This document shows, piece by piece, positions 11,492 to 53,430 of a DNA stretch of 63,043 nucleotides. Source of the DNA: a virus. Its lineage: Duplodnaviria > Caudoviricetes. Under the pieces are notes generated by a model. That model had not been told where the DNA came from, did not search any database, and worked only from the letters and a program-made list of their open reading frames with translations. The position numbers and the translations under genes are program-made. The stretch lies in the IMG/VR virus record IMGVR_UViG_3300036945_000174, positions 1 through 63,043 of that record; one strand, 5' to 3'. Numbering within the stretch: the first letter of the stretch is position 1; each line of letters opens with the position of its first letter.

Positions 11492-11762
11492 GCTACAAAG
11501 GTAATAAAATTATTTGATTGTTATTATACACAAAATGTCTAGAAATGTCTAGAATATCGAACATTGTTCATTATATTTGAATGTTCATTGACAATGAACG
11601 CTGATTTTAAATGAACATATCTACCCACCTATATAATAACGGCAATTATCGCCGGTATTTGCCAACGTTATATGCGGTATAGTGCATTTATTGTTGGTAA
11701 AAGCACACATTTATATGTTATATCATATAAAAATGTAGTATAATGCATTATTATATGTAAAA

Positions 11763-11925
11763 GCATCGGCGCCTGGGACATCCCGAGCCTAAACCGATGC
11801 CTTAGCGCCTTTTTGAACGACGTCGAGAAAGCTAACTCTATCTCCTATACGATGAGAACAACCTGAGCGCACTGATCTTACGGGAAGTGTGTTGTGTTTT
11901 ACGATCCACTCGCGAGCGTGGCTGT
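11763..11925 (-). ncRNA. Candidate structured ncRNA (unit C of the array)
   Basis: GC-richer non-coding segment; GCATCGG/CCGATGC stem 11763-11800 plus shorter stems. Confidence 0.5.
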
Positions 11926-11927
11926 TG

Positions 11928-12014
11928 ATACCGGTGAGAGACTCGAACTCTCATCTACTTCTAAAAGTAATGCTTACCCTAGGCAGTATTTATTCCTACT
12001 TACACCAACCGGTA
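11928..12014 (-). tRNA. tRNA-like element with long variable arm and non-canonical anticodon arm
   Basis: Acceptor TACCGGT/ACCGGTA, D-stem GTGT/ATAC, variable arm TACTT/AAGTA, T-arm GAGAG-TTCGAGT-CTCTC. Anticodon arm TGCCTAGGGTAAGCA is 15 nt with no canonical 7-nt loop. Confidence 0.7.
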
Positions 12015-12015
12015 C

Positions 12016-12165
12016 TATTCCACTAAGGCAGCGTCATCCTTAGTCGCACTTCGATAGTTGCTTATAACATGAGCTTCATGTACTATCACGTTTCGAGTTC
12101 TTTATCGACCACCTCTGAAGGTCACTCCGCACGGCGTGTTTTTCCGTTTAACCGCGTAACGCTTA
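12016..12165 (-). ncRNA. Candidate structured ncRNA (unit B)
   Basis: Stems ACTAAGG/CCTTAGT, GATAGT/ACTATC enclosing ACATGA/TCATGT, and GACC/GGTC; no ORF. Confidence 0.55.
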
Positions 12166-12167
12166 TT

Positions 12168-12247
12168 GTGTCAGGGCCGGACTCGAACCGGATAAGCAAC
12201 CAGTATTTCATGGATTCGGGACCATCCCTCATTACACCCACCTGACC
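12168..12247 (-). ncRNA. tRNA-like element (acceptor and T-arm intact, interior non-canonical)
   Basis: GTCAGG/CCTGAC acceptor-like stem, CCGG-TTCGAGT-CCGG T-arm; no standard D or anticodon arm. Confidence 0.6.
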
Positions 12248-12249
12248 TT

Positions 12250-12398
12250 ACGGTTAGTTGTTTAGTAGCATCTGCACCGCTAAGCAGATTTTATTACCGA
12301 TGAACAACTACGTCGAGAGTTTAATATTCACTGCAACTCACAAGCGTTCCCTAACATCAGAGACCAATCTTACAAGTTTAACGTGCATGTAAGAGCAC
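12250..12398 (-). ncRNA. Candidate structured ncRNA (unit A) starting with an H-type pseudoknot
   Basis: GTGC/GCAC crossing TCTTACA/TGTAAGA (12368-12398); TAGTTGTT/AACAACTA enclosing ATCTGC/GCAGAT (12255-12310). Confidence 0.55.
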
Positions 12399-12401
12399 TG
12401 T

Positions 12402-13169: not shown

Positions 13170-13207
13170 ATCATTTATTTTTATGCAAAGATACAACATA
13201 TGTCTGT

Positions 13208-13515
13208 ATGACGATTAAGCACCTAATCCATGACAAGAAATGACGAAATATGACGCCAAATGACAAGATTTAAAATAATTGTCATGGCGCTAGGCCACAC
13301 CAGTAAAGGAAAGTTTACGAAATATGACGCCATGACGTTTTTATCCCTATATAGAGCCTATACGTTTTTATATATATATTATTTTTTTTTTAAATGCATT
13401 TAGGATAGTAAAAAACGACATGTTGACATAAAACGTTAATTATCAGTTAGTTAGCTTAAAATTCTTGACATAAAGTTGTCATATTTTAAGAAAAGTTGTC
13501 ATAAATCCAGTGTTT
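13208..13515. repeat. ATGAC/GTCAT iteron-like array, candidate replication origin
   Basis: ATGAC at 13208, 13230, 13240, 13250, 13260, 13324, 13332, inverted copies downstream, AT-rich tract near 13365-13395; lies at the transcription divergence point. Confidence 0.55.
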
Positions 13516-13800
13516 ACAGGCCTTCCCGCGTCATGAGAATATTTGCGTGTGAATTGGTATTTCGCGTAGATATACAGAGACTTGAAATAGCCACCGCCCC
13601 AACCTTCCCCACACAAATCCAATAGTAAGCAAATACAATACGTAAAACACTGATAATCAACACATTAAACTAACTTCGTTGTTTTTTGTTGAATAATTGT
13701 CAATATCAGGTCCAATTCATTGCATTATTCTCATCAAAATAATCAATTCACTGAGAATATCATAAAAATGCACTAAAAACAAAACTTTTTTTAATTTTTA

Positions 13801-13832
13801 TTTGGTACATTGAAATTGTCGCCATATGTTTG
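13801..13832 (+). promoter_or_regulatory. Early promoter with full Bacteroidota consensus
   Basis: TTTG (13801-13804), 20-nt spacer, TATGTTTG (13825-13832); predicted start near 13837. Confidence 0.8.
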
Positions 13833-13836
13833 CGGT

Positions 13837-14045
13837 GTTCAAATGAACGAGTAGAGAACTTCACTACTAATCAAATCGGTTGAGACCACAGACCTAAGAT
13901 GTGGCGGAGGTGTAGATGTCACCATAACCATCCTACTGAACAAACAGGTGTTATAAGCGGAGTAGTTGCCGTGAAGAGCGAAATGTAAACAGCATCAAAT
14001 AGATGTTATAAAGATTATAAGGCGGGAGTTTTATAATTGGTTTAG
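13837..14045 (+). ncRNA. Structured 5' leader RNA upstream of hammerhead 1
   Basis: Successive stems including GGTTG/TAACC enclosing CCACA/TGTGG and GGTG/CACC, and ATTATAAGGC-GGGA-GTTTTATAAT; no ORF. Confidence 0.55.
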
Positions 14046-14100
14046 AAACGTATATGGATGTGTTATCCATACTGATGAGCTACAGAATAGCGAAACGTTT
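14046..14100 (+). ncRNA. Hammerhead ribozyme, type III (cleavage after GUA, A14052)
   Basis: AAACGT-A, stem I TATGGAT/ATCCATA, core CTGATGA, stem II GCTA/TAGC, GAA, stem III ACGTTT; all core bases and pairs present. Confidence 0.93.
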
Positions 14101-14113
14101 AAACTTAATTATT

Positions 14114-14332
14114 ATGTTAGTAGAAATTTATGTAAATGGAGATTGGAACACGTCATTAGAAGACAACAATGAAGTTGTGATTTATGATAAAGGAACGGTT
14201 TATAAATTAGACGATAGTCTTTATGATTCTTTTATTGATAAATTAGAAGATGAAGGATTTGATTGTTATTTCTGTCCTGAACTATTTAAACATCCTGAAT
14301 GGAATGGAATTATAAAGTATGAGGTTAACTGA
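14114..14332 (+). CDS. Acidic 72-aa early protein bracketed by two hammerheads
   Basis: ATG 14114 after an AT-rich leader (the track start at 14054 lies inside ribozyme stem I); the TGA stop is part of the second CTGATGA core. Confidence 0.7.
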   Translation: MLVEIYVNGDWNTSLEDNNEVVIYDKGTVYKLDDSLYDSFIDKLEDEGFDCYFCPELFKHPEWNGIIKYEVN

Positions 14333-14372
14333 TGAGTCTTAAGTAGACGAAACTCCTTCGGGAGTCTTAACC
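14323..14372 (+). ncRNA. Hammerhead ribozyme, type I (cleavage after GUC, C14366)
   Basis: Stem I GGTTAA/TTAACC, core CTGATGA, stem II GTCT/AGAC, GAA, stem III ACTCC-TTCG-GGAGT, then C. Confidence 0.95.
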
Positions 14373-14390
14373 AATTTAATTATTTATATC

Positions 14391-14633
14391 ATGGAAAAAT
14401 TTGCAAGAAAATGTGACATCACAAACAAAGGAATGAACGAAGGATGGTACTGCGAGTGCTTAGATACTTACATTAAAAACGAAGCAGACGCAATCAATTT
14501 TGTAAACGAACATACGTATGCTGATTTAGAATGTGCATACAATGATGAGTTTATATACTACACAGAGTGGGATGCTGAAGAAGACGAAGATGAATGGTAC
14601 GACGAAAATGGTAAACTATACGAAAATGAATAA
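14391..14633 (+). CDS. Very acidic 80-aa early protein
   Basis: About 24 D/E vs 6 K/R, aromatic-rich. Confidence 0.75.
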   Translation: MEKFARKCDITNKGMNEGWYCECLDTYIKNEADAINFVNEHTYADLECAYNDEFIYYTEWDAEEDEDEWYDENGKLYENE

Positions 14634-37600: not shown

Positions 37601-40244
37601 TTACAGACCAGTATGTTTCAGGGTCTGACTCTTTAGTTTTAGCTAGTTCCTCAGAATATGTTTGAGCCTGAGTTTTAGAAGGAGATACTATTGTTTCTTC
37701 AACAACATTTTCTTTCTGTAATTCAACAGGAGCTACTTCATTAACAGTTGTTTTTACCTCTGTAGTTTCTACAGGAGTAACTTCTTTGGTTTTTTGCTCT
37801 TGTTTAGATTTGTATAATTCTAAAGCCTTTTTAGATATTTGATCATCAGTTATAGTGATTGATTTATTTCCATCAGGATTTAACTCTTTCATCAAATCTC
37901 TCTGAGCTTCATTTTTTAAGTCTATTAATTCATCAGCAGGCAAAGACTCTAATTGAGCGTAAGGAGAATACTTAGTATTTATCAATGAAGATCTCTCTGT
38001 TTGTAAGTCTCTATATTGATTTTCTAAGTCTTTAAGCAAAGAAGCTTTATTAGGTAAATTTCCATCATTAATTACCTTAGCGTCATCTTTTAATTTAGAA
38101 GCTTGTTTATTAATTTCGTTTACTCTCAAGTAAACACTATCAGGCATATTAGCTACATTATCTATAGTATTAGCCATTATTTTTGAGTTCTCTTCAGTAG
38201 CTTTTTTTATTTGATTTTCAAGTACTGATCTTTCATCATCGCTTAAATCTAAAGTGTTTAAATTTCTTGAGAATTCAATTATTTTTCTAGCATTCTCATC
38301 TAGTAACCCAAGATCAACTTTGCTTTGAAACGGTTTTAACGCCAATCCAGCTAAATGAGGAGATACCTTTAACATAGTAGTTAATGTAAAAGTATCTTTA
38401 AGAACTGTCCCTGTGTTGTCTAGTAATCCTACATTTTTTTTACCAAGTATAAATCTATCAACAAAATTCTGACCTACATTAGTGAATTCTTCCCCGCCTC
38501 CTTCTTTTAATTGATCCTTTGTAAAATCTCTAGCAAATTCTTTTCCTTTTTTAAATGCTGTTTTTGTTAATAAGTCAGGTTGATTTTTAACTATAGCATC
38601 TAAAACTCTACCGCTTTTTTTCAATATAGATAGCGTAGGTAGTTCTGAAGCAATTTCAAATCCCATATAAGCTAATGGAGCTGTAGCCATCTGAATAGGG
38701 GTGTAAGAAGCTTTACCTTCTAATACCTCTTGATTCATTTCAGCATACTTTTGACCTGCTGCTATTGTACCCATTGCGGCAAGACCTTTAGCTCCTATAG
38801 ACGTAACTACTAAATTAGGTATTTGATTTGAGGCAACATCGGAAAAATAATTCAATAATCCTTCAACGCTTTCAACGCTTTCAACCGGTTTTCTTAGTAA
38901 ATCTTTTTGAGAATTTATATAATCATTGGCAGCTATAACATCTCTTTGAACAGACATGTTTTTTTCTTTGTCTCCAATAAGACCTCCAAAACTAGCCGCA
39001 TAATCAAGACCTCCTAATAGACCAACAGCTGCTGATTGAGCCATTAAACCTGTATTCATTAATAAATTCTCTACATCTCCATACTGTCTTTTAAGAAAAT
39101 CAAATTCCTGTTCTACTGTTCCTAAGTCAGATTTATTTTTTAAGAAAGAGTCTTGTCTTTTTTGTATGTTTTTAGAAATATTTTGTATATCAGAATACAA
39201 AGACGTATATCTGTCGTATAGATCTTGAGGAAAAGCAATGCCTTTTTCTTTTAAAGCTTTTAATTGAGTTTCAACTTCCTTATACTCATCTATTTTTTGT
39301 TTTCCAAAGGCAGCATATGCTTGAATTGCTTTTTCGTTTTTTAAGTTTTCTTCTTTTAAATGAACAGCTGTATTAAGTCTGTCTTGTTTTAAAGCTAACT
39401 TATCGTCTTCTGGAAGATCATCTAAGAATGAATTTATACGATCTGTTTCAATATTTTCAACTTGTTTATCTTTATAAACTTGCTTAGCTTTTTCGAGAAT
39501 TTCCTGCTCTGAAAGTTTTACTTGTTCTTTAGCAGCTTGTTGTCTTACTAGTTTCTTTTCGTCAGATAATGGATCTATATCCATAGAAAAACCTAATAAC
39601 CCAGAATTAAGTGGATTACTAGACATTCCTTCTATGACAGTGTTGTATGCGTTTTTAGCAAAAGTTTTTGTTTTATTCCAAATACCAGTATTAGAAAGTA
39701 AATCTTGCAACCTTTTCTCAGCTTCTACTTCAGCAGACGCCTCGTCTTTTGATGATACAAAATCTTGTTCTATTCTATCAAATCTTTCTTTTTCGATCTG
39801 TTTAGTTTGCTGGTCTAACTTAGATACTTCCTCTATCTTTCTATTAACCTCGTCTTGATTTTTAGCTGTAACTTTAGTGTTGGCTAATTCTTTTTTTAAC
39901 TGAGTTTTTTTTATGTAAGGTTTAGCTGTTTGAAATTTATCAGCCTGTTTTTTCTCAGCAGGTTTTAATGCTTCCTCGGCCGTAATATCTACGCCAAGTG
40001 TACGCATTTTAGGAACTGGTCCATTTGAAGTATCCGATTCCTGTTGAGGTTTCTGTTGATCTGTAACCAATGAAGTATACACGTCTTTCTGCTGTGAATT
40101 TGATCCCCAAACACTTTCTTGAACAGTAGACTGTGAATCTTCTTTTTTTTTTACTTCAGAGTATCCGCTTAAATCTAAATTTAATTTACTTCCACCTTTA
40201 TATCCGCTTAAATCTAAATTTAATTTCTTTTTAGGATCTGGCAT
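31578..40244 (-). CDS. Giant (2888 aa) polyvalent internal virion / ejection protein
   Basis: Two HExxH motifs (AHEVFH, LHEVQH...GEVEA), LPD23-like TGWEKGADNKWKY, a GNAT-like segment; follows tail and ejection genes. Confidence 0.75.
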   Translation of the reverse strand: MPDPKKKLNLDLSGYKGGSKLNLDLSGYSEVKKKEDSQSTVQESVWGSNSQQKDVYTSLVTDQQKPQQESDTSNGPVPKMRTLGVDITAEEALKPAEKKQADKFQTAKPYIKKTQLKKELANTKVTAKNQDEVNRKIEEVSKLDQQTKQIEKERFDRIEQDFVSSKDEASAEVEAEKRLQDLLSNTGIWNKTKTFAKNAYNTVIEGMSSNPLNSGLLGFSMDIDPLSDEKKLVRQQAAKEQVKLSEQEILEKAKQVYKDKQVENIETDRINSFLDDLPEDDKLALKQDRLNTAVHLKEENLKNEKAIQAYAAFGKQKIDEYKEVETQLKALKEKGIAFPQDLYDRYTSLYSDIQNISKNIQKRQDSFLKNKSDLGTVEQEFDFLKRQYGDVENLLMNTGLMAQSAAVGLLGGLDYAASFGGLIGDKEKNMSVQRDVIAANDYINSQKDLLRKPVESVESVEGLLNYFSDVASNQIPNLVVTSIGAKGLAAMGTIAAGQKYAEMNQEVLEGKASYTPIQMATAPLAYMGFEIASELPTLSILKKSGRVLDAIVKNQPDLLTKTAFKKGKEFARDFTKDQLKEGGGEEFTNVGQNFVDRFILGKKNVGLLDNTGTVLKDTFTLTTMLKVSPHLAGLALKPFQSKVDLGLLDENARKIIEFSRNLNTLDLSDDERSVLENQIKKATEENSKIMANTIDNVANMPDSVYLRVNEINKQASKLKDDAKVINDGNLPNKASLLKDLENQYRDLQTERSSLINTKYSPYAQLESLPADELIDLKNEAQRDLMKELNPDGNKSITITDDQISKKALELYKSKQEQKTKEVTPVETTEVKTTVNEVAPVELQKENVVEETIVSPSKTQAQTYSEELAKTKESDPETYWSVSEVSPEDAAKGTIIDTEDGSALVKPDGDIAGVFKKLTSKAKGVAQNLLNKAIEAGGIKLDNFDGYLTKQYEKAGFRVVSRTPFNEQYAPEGWNKEKHGTPDVVAMVYDPNNELDIEEKTFKDPETGYDDAIAYRDGFVNQAKSLKESPVTVQEVIDESEKTNKLSDLVQKAKTALSKILPGTGIILYNTEAEYKAAINEGKDENSGGAFVGGKIHINPNRANNRTVAHEVFHAVLLNMVKSDPAAQRVTAAMITAIEKVLPPDMKAKLQDFVENGYDSQKELWDEEKLAELVGYLADNFPSLSQPAKNIIKEWLDQLAKLVGIKEFTDKEVIDFMNTLSGKVASGEVITNEDVKLFNQEGAGGFVGIFKISRQQNAVKAPKAKDDPRNFINKFVEDIDIREFNGSKFITNMYDYTNAGQTDLGNGYNINLFGGKGYVPYMMELNGKKIGDVSNLAAFNTNAQAETFIRNAEKSGAKLFAPHSGTKSQSWQFQQHTFAELVDLILDKNILTNKELIDTFNNSIKGSEALKDKFSKFSEKYGEKINDFSSFESDPKKIVELLDIKNNLSPDLRKALNNSIASNKKFQSAIGIKNKEEFYNRIMDPLNNGVSGGEIIGIVDFDPSTFEIVKTKPSDIDHHPSFGYSLLAKINGIYQPTEFYKSYDITDSYVKYNINGENTSIKSEDIDFDKKNVTSSAGAIPKVAEFNVPGRKQIIGEKSVKDKLVQNNLDTAKEMEAANKSAEDIFIATGWEKGADNKWKYDLQEGVVEFKNKKNGKASEVINYPELFKAYPKAKNIDIVFMNSDKFEGMYIPSKNRIMLSNSLSDSEAKSTLLHEVQHFIQHEEGFAVGGNSQTIKDLYNARIKYEKNFSVRKVLNNIKNSLFKPNPGSVKEDLDKLSKLVSKSDEELYRSIAGEVEAFNVEKRANMTAEERKATPISETADKPKEEQVVISDSDTMLKDRKQSVSEFNRELNDKEINLLRRSLRMKFKDSFVVEVLDDYVNSIKEDAPANNEATQYLLDNGVTLNRLANLMVEEGNFDTKSRALGYFNTVGGLGESVLSRKQANRPSVDEIYEESNKAIRDLEKTRGYKELLNDVYRRIFDRQKNIKDLMLSFGNTYAKNAYNRLVTKSGASGYASFEFKEAAKRIYGGLKKSDLAYLDKIIYAKRIKSINEKRVKEGRPLYKGMKGYSLEDANNDLDKIKSELGDKKFEDLNNRASEYFNEYRKSLRDLYDSGRISKETYDAFKNDEYSPIKTIKYILSPNTSTEEIDSEAKRFGMAKKDIMKLGDENDNAIIMDSKWLLATTINANKTRAFENKMLNEFNKAFESLSKEEKDSISDYIVENPVIGKKKDGSLKYKYDTVDLPNGFRKISFFENGNKKDIIIDKNYANQLLDVKTKYRALEILGTASGTGILRFFATGGNPLFIFGNVANDFQNVLYNTDVYSGFLPLATVQIARDFIKNFVKKAVLNDTYNSTYKEYLSHGGALDQMSRDGLQALESRNTTNKLVKGVKKGLLATGNFLSYLGNTSETAFRLAVYDKYKEKLIKEFEKQNGRTPNSQELDDIMWDAARESRETMPFDQGGDLAKTANVLMPYLNAGLQGIRKFAVFAAKNPRRFARNIVQYTAMSGALSATSFAMLLMGIRNDDEDDEKSLKEMIRAWQSVSNYEKANYHIFFTGNKNKDGEYEYYRIKKIPVFSILSTASEEALLKSFLNSKGVDYEFDSDPVKQSALKSIPFPIDVQEWLGRNPTAGALISYWANKDTFTGEKIFREPRGKKILPEAEVDNKTNQIYIDLGRLTGLSPAKSKVAAEKIITAETTNPAIPLMYSAWDGLFHKKDGFGKEVSSAMSTVVDAFGKKVVRYTDKNIINYKKQDELEYKEAVIETEIWKKEQKVYDEIKEVYSSGNKLDRNGFKKIIESNFDPIDREKYAKKYKAYINNMGSDREVLDIIFEDVPEVQAMKLNERYGNSFDEEERKELEEISKRSERPISRKALDIYYNKYKNRKATN

Positions 40245-52329: not shown

Positions 52330-53430
52330 TTATTTTTTATTACTTTTTATTCTTAGTCCTCTTCCGCTATCTCCATCAGATGCAACAACTTTAAATCCAG
52401 ACTGAGCAATTGATTGAGGAGAATTTCTCATCTCCATATCAATATTCTTAATTCTTTTGGTGTTATCTAATAACGCCTCTGCTCTACCTTGTTCGTAAAA
52501 GAACTTAGCAACTTTTTCTGGATTCATAGCGGCAGCTAATGAACGATGATAACCAACGTGGTCTGAAATCAATCCATTCTCATCTAAATACTTAGATATA
52601 AAATTGGTAACATCAGATTGTGCTCTCTTAGTCTCTGTAACGTCTCCTGGTAAAAACTTAATTGTCTTATCTCCTACATTGAAATCAAAACCTTTGAATT
52701 CATCAGAGAAAAGTTCTTCAGTCTTCTTTTGAAAGTATTGAGACTTTCTAAGATTCTCTTCTTGTTGATTACTGGAATCTTGAACATATTTCTTGTAAGC
52801 CTCGTAAGCTTCTTTTTCGTCATCAGAAACAGAACTACCTTTTGACTCAAGAGGCGTCTTATATGTTTCCTTATACTCATCAAAAAACTTCTTAGCTTTA
52901 GCAAGCTCTTTTTTCTTAGCGATTTCCTTTTTCTTGATGTCCTTTGGATCATCAAACTCTTCATCGTAAGCAAACTTATCTTCGATCATATATTGAATAT
53001 CATCTCTGTCTAAGTCCTCTTCTGTTTGAGAGTAGTACTCAACTAATAAATCATCCGGATCCATGTCGTCAAAGTTTCTGTTTAGTTTAACAAAATCTTC
53101 AATTCCACGTCCAGTTTCCTTTTTGTATTTAAAATACGCAGCTACGTCCTCTGGTAAGTCCTCTTTCTTCTCTTCTCTCTCTGAGATAAGATCATTAATA
53201 GAGTTTACTTCCTTTCCGTATCTGTTTTTAATATATGAAAGAACGTCATTATCTTCTAGCTCTGCCCTTGATGGCTCTGCTGGTAATTCTACTTCAGGTT
53301 CGTTTTGAACTTCTACATGCTCTGGTTCAGCAATACTCTCCTCATGCTTATCCAATAACTCTTGTTCAACTTCCTGTACTGATTTTTGCTCGGCGACACC
53401 TAGGTCCCTTACAGTAAAAGTGTTTTCCAT
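52330..53430 (-). CDS. Putative capsid scaffolding protein
   Basis: Acidic and helical; between portal and capsid genes; TAACTTTG box at 53447-53454. Confidence 0.7.
   Translation of the reverse strand: MENTFTVRDLGVAEQKSVQEVEQELLDKHEESIAEPEHVEVQNEPEVELPAEPSRAELEDNDVLSYIKNRYGKEVNSINDLISEREEKKEDLPEDVAAYFKYKKETGRGIEDFVKLNRNFDDMDPDDLLVEYYSQTEEDLDRDDIQYMIEDKFAYDEEFDDPKDIKKKEIAKKKELAKAKKFFDEYKETYKTPLESKGSSVSDDEKEAYEAYKKYVQDSSNQQEENLRKSQYFQKKTEELFSDEFKGFDFNVGDKTIKFLPGDVTETKRAQSDVTNFISKYLDENGLISDHVGYHRSLAAAMNPEKVAKFFYEQGRAEALLDNTKRIKNIDMEMRNSPQSIAQSGFKVVASDGDSGRGLRIKSNKK

Follow-up and report, generated by a model that had tools for sequence, protein, structure and literature searches.

A predicted type I hammerhead ribozyme in a phage operon carries the stop codon of the preceding small gene in its core

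Introduction

RiboJ-type 5' hammerheads are used in synthetic biology as ribozyme insulators. In prophages, hammerheads have been found to flank single genes or short gene blocks, and the processing of long transcripts was proposed as their role; one published bracketed gene is an early anti-restriction gene (PMC3088659, Perreault et al., 2011). In the 5' UTRs of fungal and plant RNA viruses, type I hammerheads are needed for translation initiation (PMC13725137). A discontinuous hammerhead is located in mammalian Clec2 3' UTRs (summarised in PMC6765202), and the role of bacterial and phage hammerheads is described as still open in the same review. A preprint from 2026 points out that CUGAUGA holds two UGA triplets, within an argument that concerns the origin of the code only (10.64898/2026.03.05.709948).

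The window analyzed here, by which the whole stretch of DNA is meant, is a complete virus record of 63,043 bases. Two predicted hammerheads, HH1 and HH2, flank the ORF at 14114-14332 on the coding strand. Because HH1 sits upstream of this 72-aa gene and HH2 at its end, the gene is bracketed, and the gene-flanking arrangement of phage hammerheads as defined by Perreault et al. (2011), with at least two hammerheads around a gene, was present. As in the prophages of PMC3088659, the same-strand hammerheads bracket a small phage gene. Unlike there, a type III and a type I hammerhead are paired, the stem I sequence is common to many phages, the stop codon of the preceding ORF is located within the ribozyme and the following start codon is at a constant spacing of ~23 nt. 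PMC3088659 contains neither 'stop codon' nor 'overlap' in its main text; its supplements may hold members of the family.

The locus also resembles the RiboJ design, since HH1 would trim the upstream RNA, so that the ORF would be preceded by a defined 5' end protected by a hairpin, and the leader supplied by HH2 to the next gene would be independent of context. Unlike RiboJ, both elements are natural and reside in a phage, and HH2 overlaps the preceding coding sequence. With the RNA viruses of PMC13725137 the locus shares a type I hammerhead just before a viral ORF, where cleavage makes the translated 5' end; those viruses are eukaryotic, with RNA genomes and cap-independent translation, whereas HH2 is intercistronic and belongs to a DNA phage, probably of Flavobacteriia. 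In Clec2 the cleavage site likewise lies just 3' of the stop, so that the ribozyme acts on a complete coding mRNA. The Clec2 stop is outside the ribozyme and its cut removes the poly(A) signal, whereas in HH2 the stop is a core triplet and the cut would separate two cistrons.

A literature search of material other than supplements returned no report of a natural ORF with a hammerhead core UGA as its stop. Three features seem not to be in print: core or stem triplets that serve as stops, a fixed spacing up to the next start, and cargo genes that are exchanged between one and the same pair of ribozymes. The locus and its family offer a concrete and testable anatomy, with a stop in or against a ribozyme, a predicted cut ~23 nt before the next start and swapped cargo. 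On the practical side, such elements are missed by Rfam models, and gene callers mis-start ORFs within hammerheads (see P0001 below).

Results and Discussion

Genomic setting

The primase-helicase of the window was closest to those of phages of Flavobacterium, Nonlabens, Cellulophaga, Polaribacter and Bacteroides, and because of this similarity the host of the window phage is probably a member of the Flavobacteriia. The coding strand changes from - to + between ~13.2 and 14.0 kb, and the + strand operon is headed by HH1, a 12-nt leader, the 72-aa ORF, HH2, a 24-nt leader and the next ORF, in this order (Table 1). On a crude ORF map the operon was very compact, with a median gap of 1 nt from a stop to the next start and overlaps at 17 of 38 junctions. 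A recoding of UGA in this phage was considered and dropped, as TGA closes 9 of the 57 long ORFs and is therefore an ordinary stop. Beside the strand switch, the regions ~11500-12400 and 13200-14045 are without a long ORF on either strand, and an Rfam search of these two regions gave no match.

Table 1. Coordinates of the features at the head of the + strand operon.
Feature	Position in the window	Strand	Basis or remark
HH1, type III hammerhead	14045-14101	+	RF00008 score, fold, compensatory changes
A/U-rich leader, HH1 to ORF start	14102-14113 (12 nt)	+	
72-aa ORF, function unassigned	14114-14332 (ATG 14114, stop 14330-14332)	+	nine database homologues aligned
HH2, type I hammerhead	14323-14372	+	sequence, fold, covariation, model R1
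In-frame tandem UGA UGA of the HH2 core	14330-14335	+	first UGA (14330-14332) is the ORF stop
A/U-rich leader, predicted 5'-OH start of the downstream mRNA after the HH2 cut	14367-14390 (24 nt)	+	
Next gene, 80 aa, function unassigned	14391-14633 (ATG 14391)	+	

Anatomy and authenticity of HH2

The initial annotation had described the ORF as ending in GAG GTT AAC TGA, with its last codons forming stem I and its TGA being part of CTGATGA, and the sequence bore this out. GAG is located at 14321-14323, GTT at 14324-14326, AAC at 14327-14329 and TGA at 14330-14332. The last base of GAG together with GTT AA constitutes the 5' strand of stem I (14323-14328), and the C of AAC followed by TGA TGA makes up the core (14329-14335). 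The last two sense codons of the ORF (GTT AAC, encoding Val-Asn) and its stop are thus within HH2, and a second in-frame TGA directly follows the stop at 14333-14335.

The minimum-free-energy fold of 14318-14378 was a three-way hammerhead junction. In this fold, stem I pairs 14323-14328 with 14367-14372, stem II pairs 14336-14339 with 14345-14348 (14336-14348 including the loop), and stem III pairs 14352-14356 with 14361-14365 and is closed by a UUCG loop. Stem I is open and stems II and III are loop-capped, which is the topology of a type I hammerhead. The conserved core is complete and consists of CUGAUGA (14329-14335), GAAA (14349-14352) and the cleavage triplet GUC (14364-14366). It agreed with CUGANGA, GAAA, the A15.1-U16.1 pair and NUH, and had no mismatch to the core of the covariance model R1 described below. 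C17 corresponds to 14366, and cleavage is predicted between 14366 and 14367.

Two observations would fit a chance look-alike that is not a functional ribozyme. The bare motif CTGATGA-N(6-36)-GAAA was present three times in the window against 1.59 expected occurrences, which is not significant, and the Rfam models were weak on HH2: RF00163, the type I model, gave no match to it at E values up to 10, and RF00008 scored it at 21.4 bits, under the gathering score of 48.5. Because the bare core was not enriched and Rfam failed to recognize HH2, model R1 was built from 37 hammerheads of other phage contigs, with the window and its close relatives left out. Its match to 14323-14372 scored 69.3 bits (E 1.1e-16); apart from the HH1 core, the window contained no further match better than E 1. 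In a 44-sequence alignment, compensatory changes were present in 6 of 14 pairs, and these were located in stems II and III. Stem I covaried as well: among the matches listed, 149 of 152 closed stem I, with ~40 different sequences. The score from an independent family model, the covariation in all three stems and the agreement of every core position with the consensus make a chance look-alike extremely improbable, and judged by sequence and covariation HH2 is a genuine conserved hammerhead. The Rfam models appear to miss this phage hammerhead family.

Searches of the window with the motif and model R1 revealed no hammerheads other than HH1 and HH2. Candidates at 52789-52826 and at 37936, both on the - strand, were rejected; they were coding-like, and no stem I or III was seen by eye in their flanks. 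In hammerheads, a tertiary contact of stem I with stem/loop II gives fast cleavage at cellular Mg2+. A pseudoknot that would pair loop II with sequence next to stem I was dropped, as loop II was no more complementary to the 16 nt flanking stem I on each side than in permuted pairings and the helix lengths observed were those of the permuted set.

HH1

HH1 is composed of a stem I hairpin (14053-14071), CUGAUGA (14072-14078), a stem II hairpin (14079-14091) and GAAA (14092-14095), and its cleavage is predicted after GUA, between 14052 and 14053. The minimum-free-energy fold of HH1 was a three-way junction. RF00008 matched it at 40.6 bits (E 1.2e-6), under the gathering score of 48.5, and compensatory changes in stems I, II and III were recognized by eye among 17 viral stretches. 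Across these 17 stretches, at least 12 unrelated small ORFs directly followed HH1.

Two AUGs of HH1, at 14054 in stem I and at 14075 in the core (CUG-AUG-A), share the frame of the ORF, with no stop in between. Their use as start codons was rejected and their presence taken as chance, since in relatives the AUG at 14054 is replaced by UAAGG with a compensatory change and the leader lengths vary. One database protein of 85 aa (P0001) starts at the HH1 core AUG, a mis-start by the gene caller. Cultured Flavobacterium phages of the genus Elemovirus also have an HH1 homologue, located at 1501-1571 of L128 (loci of the comparison set are labeled L), which belongs to phage vB_FspP_elemoA_7-9A. It has CUGAAGA, a change at the variable core position, and is followed by an unrelated 71-aa ORF; the record carries no RNA annotation.

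The 72-aa ORF and its homologues

The ORF listing gives 14054..14332, starting from an upstream in-frame ATG. The start was set at the ATG at 14114 because the homologues begin at the equivalent of this position. Nine database homologues of the 72-aa ORF were found; the homologues were overall 44-100% identical, and a C-terminal block, DCYFCPELF.HPEWNGIIKYE, is conserved. Pfam and PHROGs searches assigned no family to the 72-aa ORF or to the downstream 80-aa gene, and a protein atlas search with the 72-aa ORF gave no usable match.

The gene and HH2 occurred together in four distinct loci, namely the window, L002, L004 and L003 (the same contig as L009 and L066, and counted once), and all four read NAG GTT AAC TGA TGA. 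Six homologues, in L005, L006, L007, L008, L083 and L230, are without a downstream hammerhead. The Val-Asn end was absent from all six of them, and most stop on a TAA of their own, at most three codons from the conserved KYE-type end. Because the homologues without HH2 end differently, the Val-Asn tail is stem I read as protein rather than a sequence dictated by the protein.

Between the window (14114-14329) and L002 (3001-3216) the ORF differed by 1 nt, while the flanks around it were 82-90% identical and stems II and III differed at many paired positions. In several freshwater metagenome runs, about one quarter of the 801-nt stretch was present as exact words. These observations suggest that the cassette has spread recently or that its nucleotide sequence is under constraint.

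Register of the stop within the ribozyme

The initial annotation had proposed to examine whether the overlap of stop and core is conserved in homologous loci. The overlap was kept in all four loci in which the gene and HH2 co-occur, but it is tied neither to the locus nor to the ribozyme. In the syntenic relative L229, a hammerhead identical to HH2 over 50 nt stands behind an unrelated 75-aa ORF that ends on the UAA in stem I, and the stop of a 78-aa ORF in L216 is likewise the UAA in stem I. An 89-aa ORF in L228 reads through the core and ends on a UAA in loop II, and in L031 the stop is a UAG at the edge of the ribozyme. Among the matches listed, the registers were mixed in 16 of the 24 upstream-gene families with at least two members, and 3 of the 11 multi-member families with a core-UGA member were uniform. 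The conserved register of ORF end and RNA that is expected of a translation-coupled switch was not found, as the register was constant only with the same cargo gene (4 of 4 loci). From these comparisons, the core UGA is one of several interchangeable stop registers.

Stops, frames and next starts in the phage family

A scan of viral contigs for the stem I and core of the window gave at least 117 stretches, and a second scan in which stem I was left free gave at least 120 further ones. After a structural filter, 192 type I hammerheads were retained among the matches listed, a sample and not a census. The best ORF of at least 40 aa was taken as the upstream ORF; these ORF calls are crude. The stem I sequence of the window was the commonest, accounting for 54 of 149 matches listed in the stem I-free scan, beside ~40 other sequences.

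Among the 192 matches listed, the upstream stop was the first core UGA in 39 cases, lay inside stem I in 33 and at the 5' edge of stem I in 29. It preceded the ribozyme by 1-11 nt in 47 cases, was farther upstream in 26 and was deeper within the ribozyme in 6, and the remaining 12 had no upstream ORF. Measured from the core C, the stop was within -19 to +15 nt in 154 of the 192 listed, and it overlapped ribozyme nucleotides in 107 of them. The upstream ORFs of the matches listed fell into 145 families, 33 of which included the core-UGA register.

By frame logic alone, an ORF entering CUGAUGA would be closed by the UGA in one of three frames. Among the matches listed, the ORFs ending near the ribozyme showed a frame preference of 77:56:21 for frames A:B:C (p 1.7e-7), which was 58.9:45.4:18.3 when one ORF per gene family was counted (p 3e-5). 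The two favored frames are those in which conserved ribozyme nucleotides give the stop. In 90 of 243 distinct hammerheads among the matches listed, the 5' half closed every reading frame, compared to 2.1% of random windows; the 3' half did so in 9 of these 243. An ORF of at least 40 aa started with ATG 16-33 nt past the cleavage site in 140 of the 192 matches listed, compared to 8.7% at random positions, and the leaders between the cleavage site and the next ORF start were 75% A+U in the family.

Nearly all of 149 members among the matches listed had, at the 5' end of stem I, an unpaired A at -7 and a G, the first base of the stem, at -6 relative to the core C, and in many loci this A-G doubles as the last letters of UAG or UAA stops. 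In L071, L072, L013 and L022, 3-4 type I hammerheads that share one stem I are arrayed within ~0.8-3.2 kb, with one hammerhead between each pair of small genes. A recurrent variant with an extra U after the core (CUGAUGA-U-GG...), in which position 10.1 is not the usual G, was seen in L003 (3207-3257), L095, L121, L090 and L114.

Probable processing of an early polycistronic RNA

The best explanation, which we regard as probable with some reservation, is that HH2 is an intercistronic processing ribozyme packed flush between two genes and that its core UGA serves as a convenient stop. Hammerheads of the HH2 family would fill the whole spacer between two co-transcribed genes, and predicted self-cleavage after C14366 would cut an early polycistronic RNA. 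The upstream product would comprise the complete ORF with its stop and a 34-nt tail that contains hairpins II and III and carries a 2',3'-cyclic phosphate at its end; the RNA downstream of the cut would begin at U14367 with a 5'-OH and present a 24-nt A/U-rich leader before the next AUG. Together, the cuts of HH1 and HH2 would release the 72-aa gene as a monocistronic RNA of 314 nt (14053-14366). If this is how the locus works, its hammerheads are natural intercistronic insulators.

The position of the stop would follow from the compactness of the genome. Because space in the genome is tight and stops are available in the 5' half of the ribozyme (the tandem UGA of the core, the UAA of stem I and often one in loop II), the ORF may simply run two extra codons, Val-Asn, to the first ready-made stop. 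The median gap of 1 nt and the overlaps at 17 of 38 junctions are enough to explain why the stop falls within the ribozyme or abuts it. At the end of the ORF the ribosome must melt stem I, so that folding and termination would momentarily exclude each other; this is best read as a side effect of packing, not as a demonstrated control device. Against packing as the sole cause stands that the stop was within reach of the ribosome in 154 of the 192 matches listed, which is more regular than packing needs. Selection on terminating within the ribozyme could underlie the regular stop position and the frame bias.

A possible role of the hammerheads as cassette boundaries

It is possible, if somewhat unlikely, that HH1 and HH2 delimit a swappable early-gene slot, with the ribozyme blocks acting as recombination joints. 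Whatever ORF enters the slot would then be stopped by the 5' half of HH2, in as many as three frames, and the next gene would receive a standard leader from the 3' product. Such a role is compatible with the processing model and would add an evolutionary function to it. Several observations point in this direction. Syntenic relatives with flanks 70-85% identical carry unrelated genes between HH1 and HH2, and contigs of four other metagenome runs keep both hammerheads around 188, 255 or 420 other letters, the joints of the foreign slot contents lying at 14079/14116 to 14322. The range of at least 12 unrelated ORFs behind HH1 in the 17 stretches agrees with this, as does the near-identity of the ORF in the window and L002 next to diverged stems II and III and flanks. 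The all-frame stops in 90 of 243 5' halves and the single stem I sequence in 54 of 149 members (both among the matches listed, the latter with stem I not fixed in the search) also fit. However, the identical blocks are short (~14 nt), and the recombination junctions are putative. Phage mosaicism is common without special joints, and the enrichment of stops may come from A/U-rich loops and a stem that contains UAA. Should the slot be real, the hammerheads would provide the first example of self-cleaving ribozymes that mark module boundaries in the evolution of phages. A wider proposal, in which these hammerheads are portable gene-cassette bookends in phages of Bacteroidota and other hosts and combine an all-frame stop, a ~23-nt leader, joints for early genes and a ribosome-delayed cut, is doubtful and in our estimate rather unlikely.

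Proposed coupling of cleavage to translation

In the initial annotation, the embedded stop was taken to couple cleavage to translation of the upstream gene, as a possible timer or sensor of the translation state of the host. The premise of this idea stood, in that a ribosome at the stop would unwind stem I and cover the core, and that the stop was near the core in 154 of the 192 matches listed; the proposed role itself found no positive support, because the register is mixed, the hammerhead-free homologues end elsewhere and no stable alternative fold was found. In bacteria, a ribosome whose A site holds a stop codon covers ~15 nt beyond the P-site codon on the 3' side. This coverage would reach ~14342, so that stem I, the core and half of stem II would be unfolded while the ribosome sits there.

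A translation-gated ribozyme, in which termination in the 5' half is selected and cleavage occurs only in ribosome-free intervals, would tie the separation of the cistrons or the stability of the products to the translation level of the upstream gene. It would draw on the concentration of stops between -19 and +15 nt of the core and on the overlaps with the ribozyme in 107 of the 192 matches listed, as well as on the frame bias toward registers supplied by the ribozyme. In the orthologous slot, all cargo genes seen end inside or touching HH2 (the window, L002, L004, L229, L216, L228 and L031). Stem I would also be easily displaced, because it has only six A/U-rich pairs and is lost in the minimum-free-energy fold of a longer context. 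However, packing alone predicts the same pattern, given the median gap of 1 nt, and the register moves freely between homologous genes. The ribozyme is unchanged where the upstream ORF ends farther away (26 of the 192 matches listed) or is absent (12 of 192). No competing helix that translation could toggle was stable in the 161-nt context, where the ensemble was diffuse (z +0.94), and the two mutually exclusive folds of an attenuator-like switch were not found. Kinetics speak against gating as well. A terminating ribosome stays ~1 second at its site, and natural hammerheads cleave irreversibly within seconds to minutes. With brief occupancy and an irreversible cut, ordinary ribosome spacing should delay cleavage and not prevent it. 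We therefore consider translational gating quite unlikely; were the coupling true, HH2 would be the first self-cleaving ribozyme gated by the ribosome.

Possible fate of the predicted excised RNA

Hammerhead products, with a 5'-OH and a 2',3'-cyclic phosphate, are suited to RtcB-type ligases. That the 314-nt product of HH1 and HH2 is ligated into a retrozyme-like circle would agree with these predicted ends and with a gene bracketed by two ribozymes, but it is very improbable, as the predicted fold does not pair the two ends, the structure of the RNA does not exceed that of shuffles (z -1.03), ribozymes of different types would not re-form one across the joint, and most family members among the matches listed are single intergenic copies.

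A tRNA-like element in the window

At 15786-15926 on the + strand, Rfam reported a tRNA match of 32.3 bits against a gathering score of 29; ARAGORN called no tRNA over the whole window. The element has good acceptor, D and T arms, with ~61 extra nt in place of the anticodon arm, and also contains an additional 20-nt hairpin.
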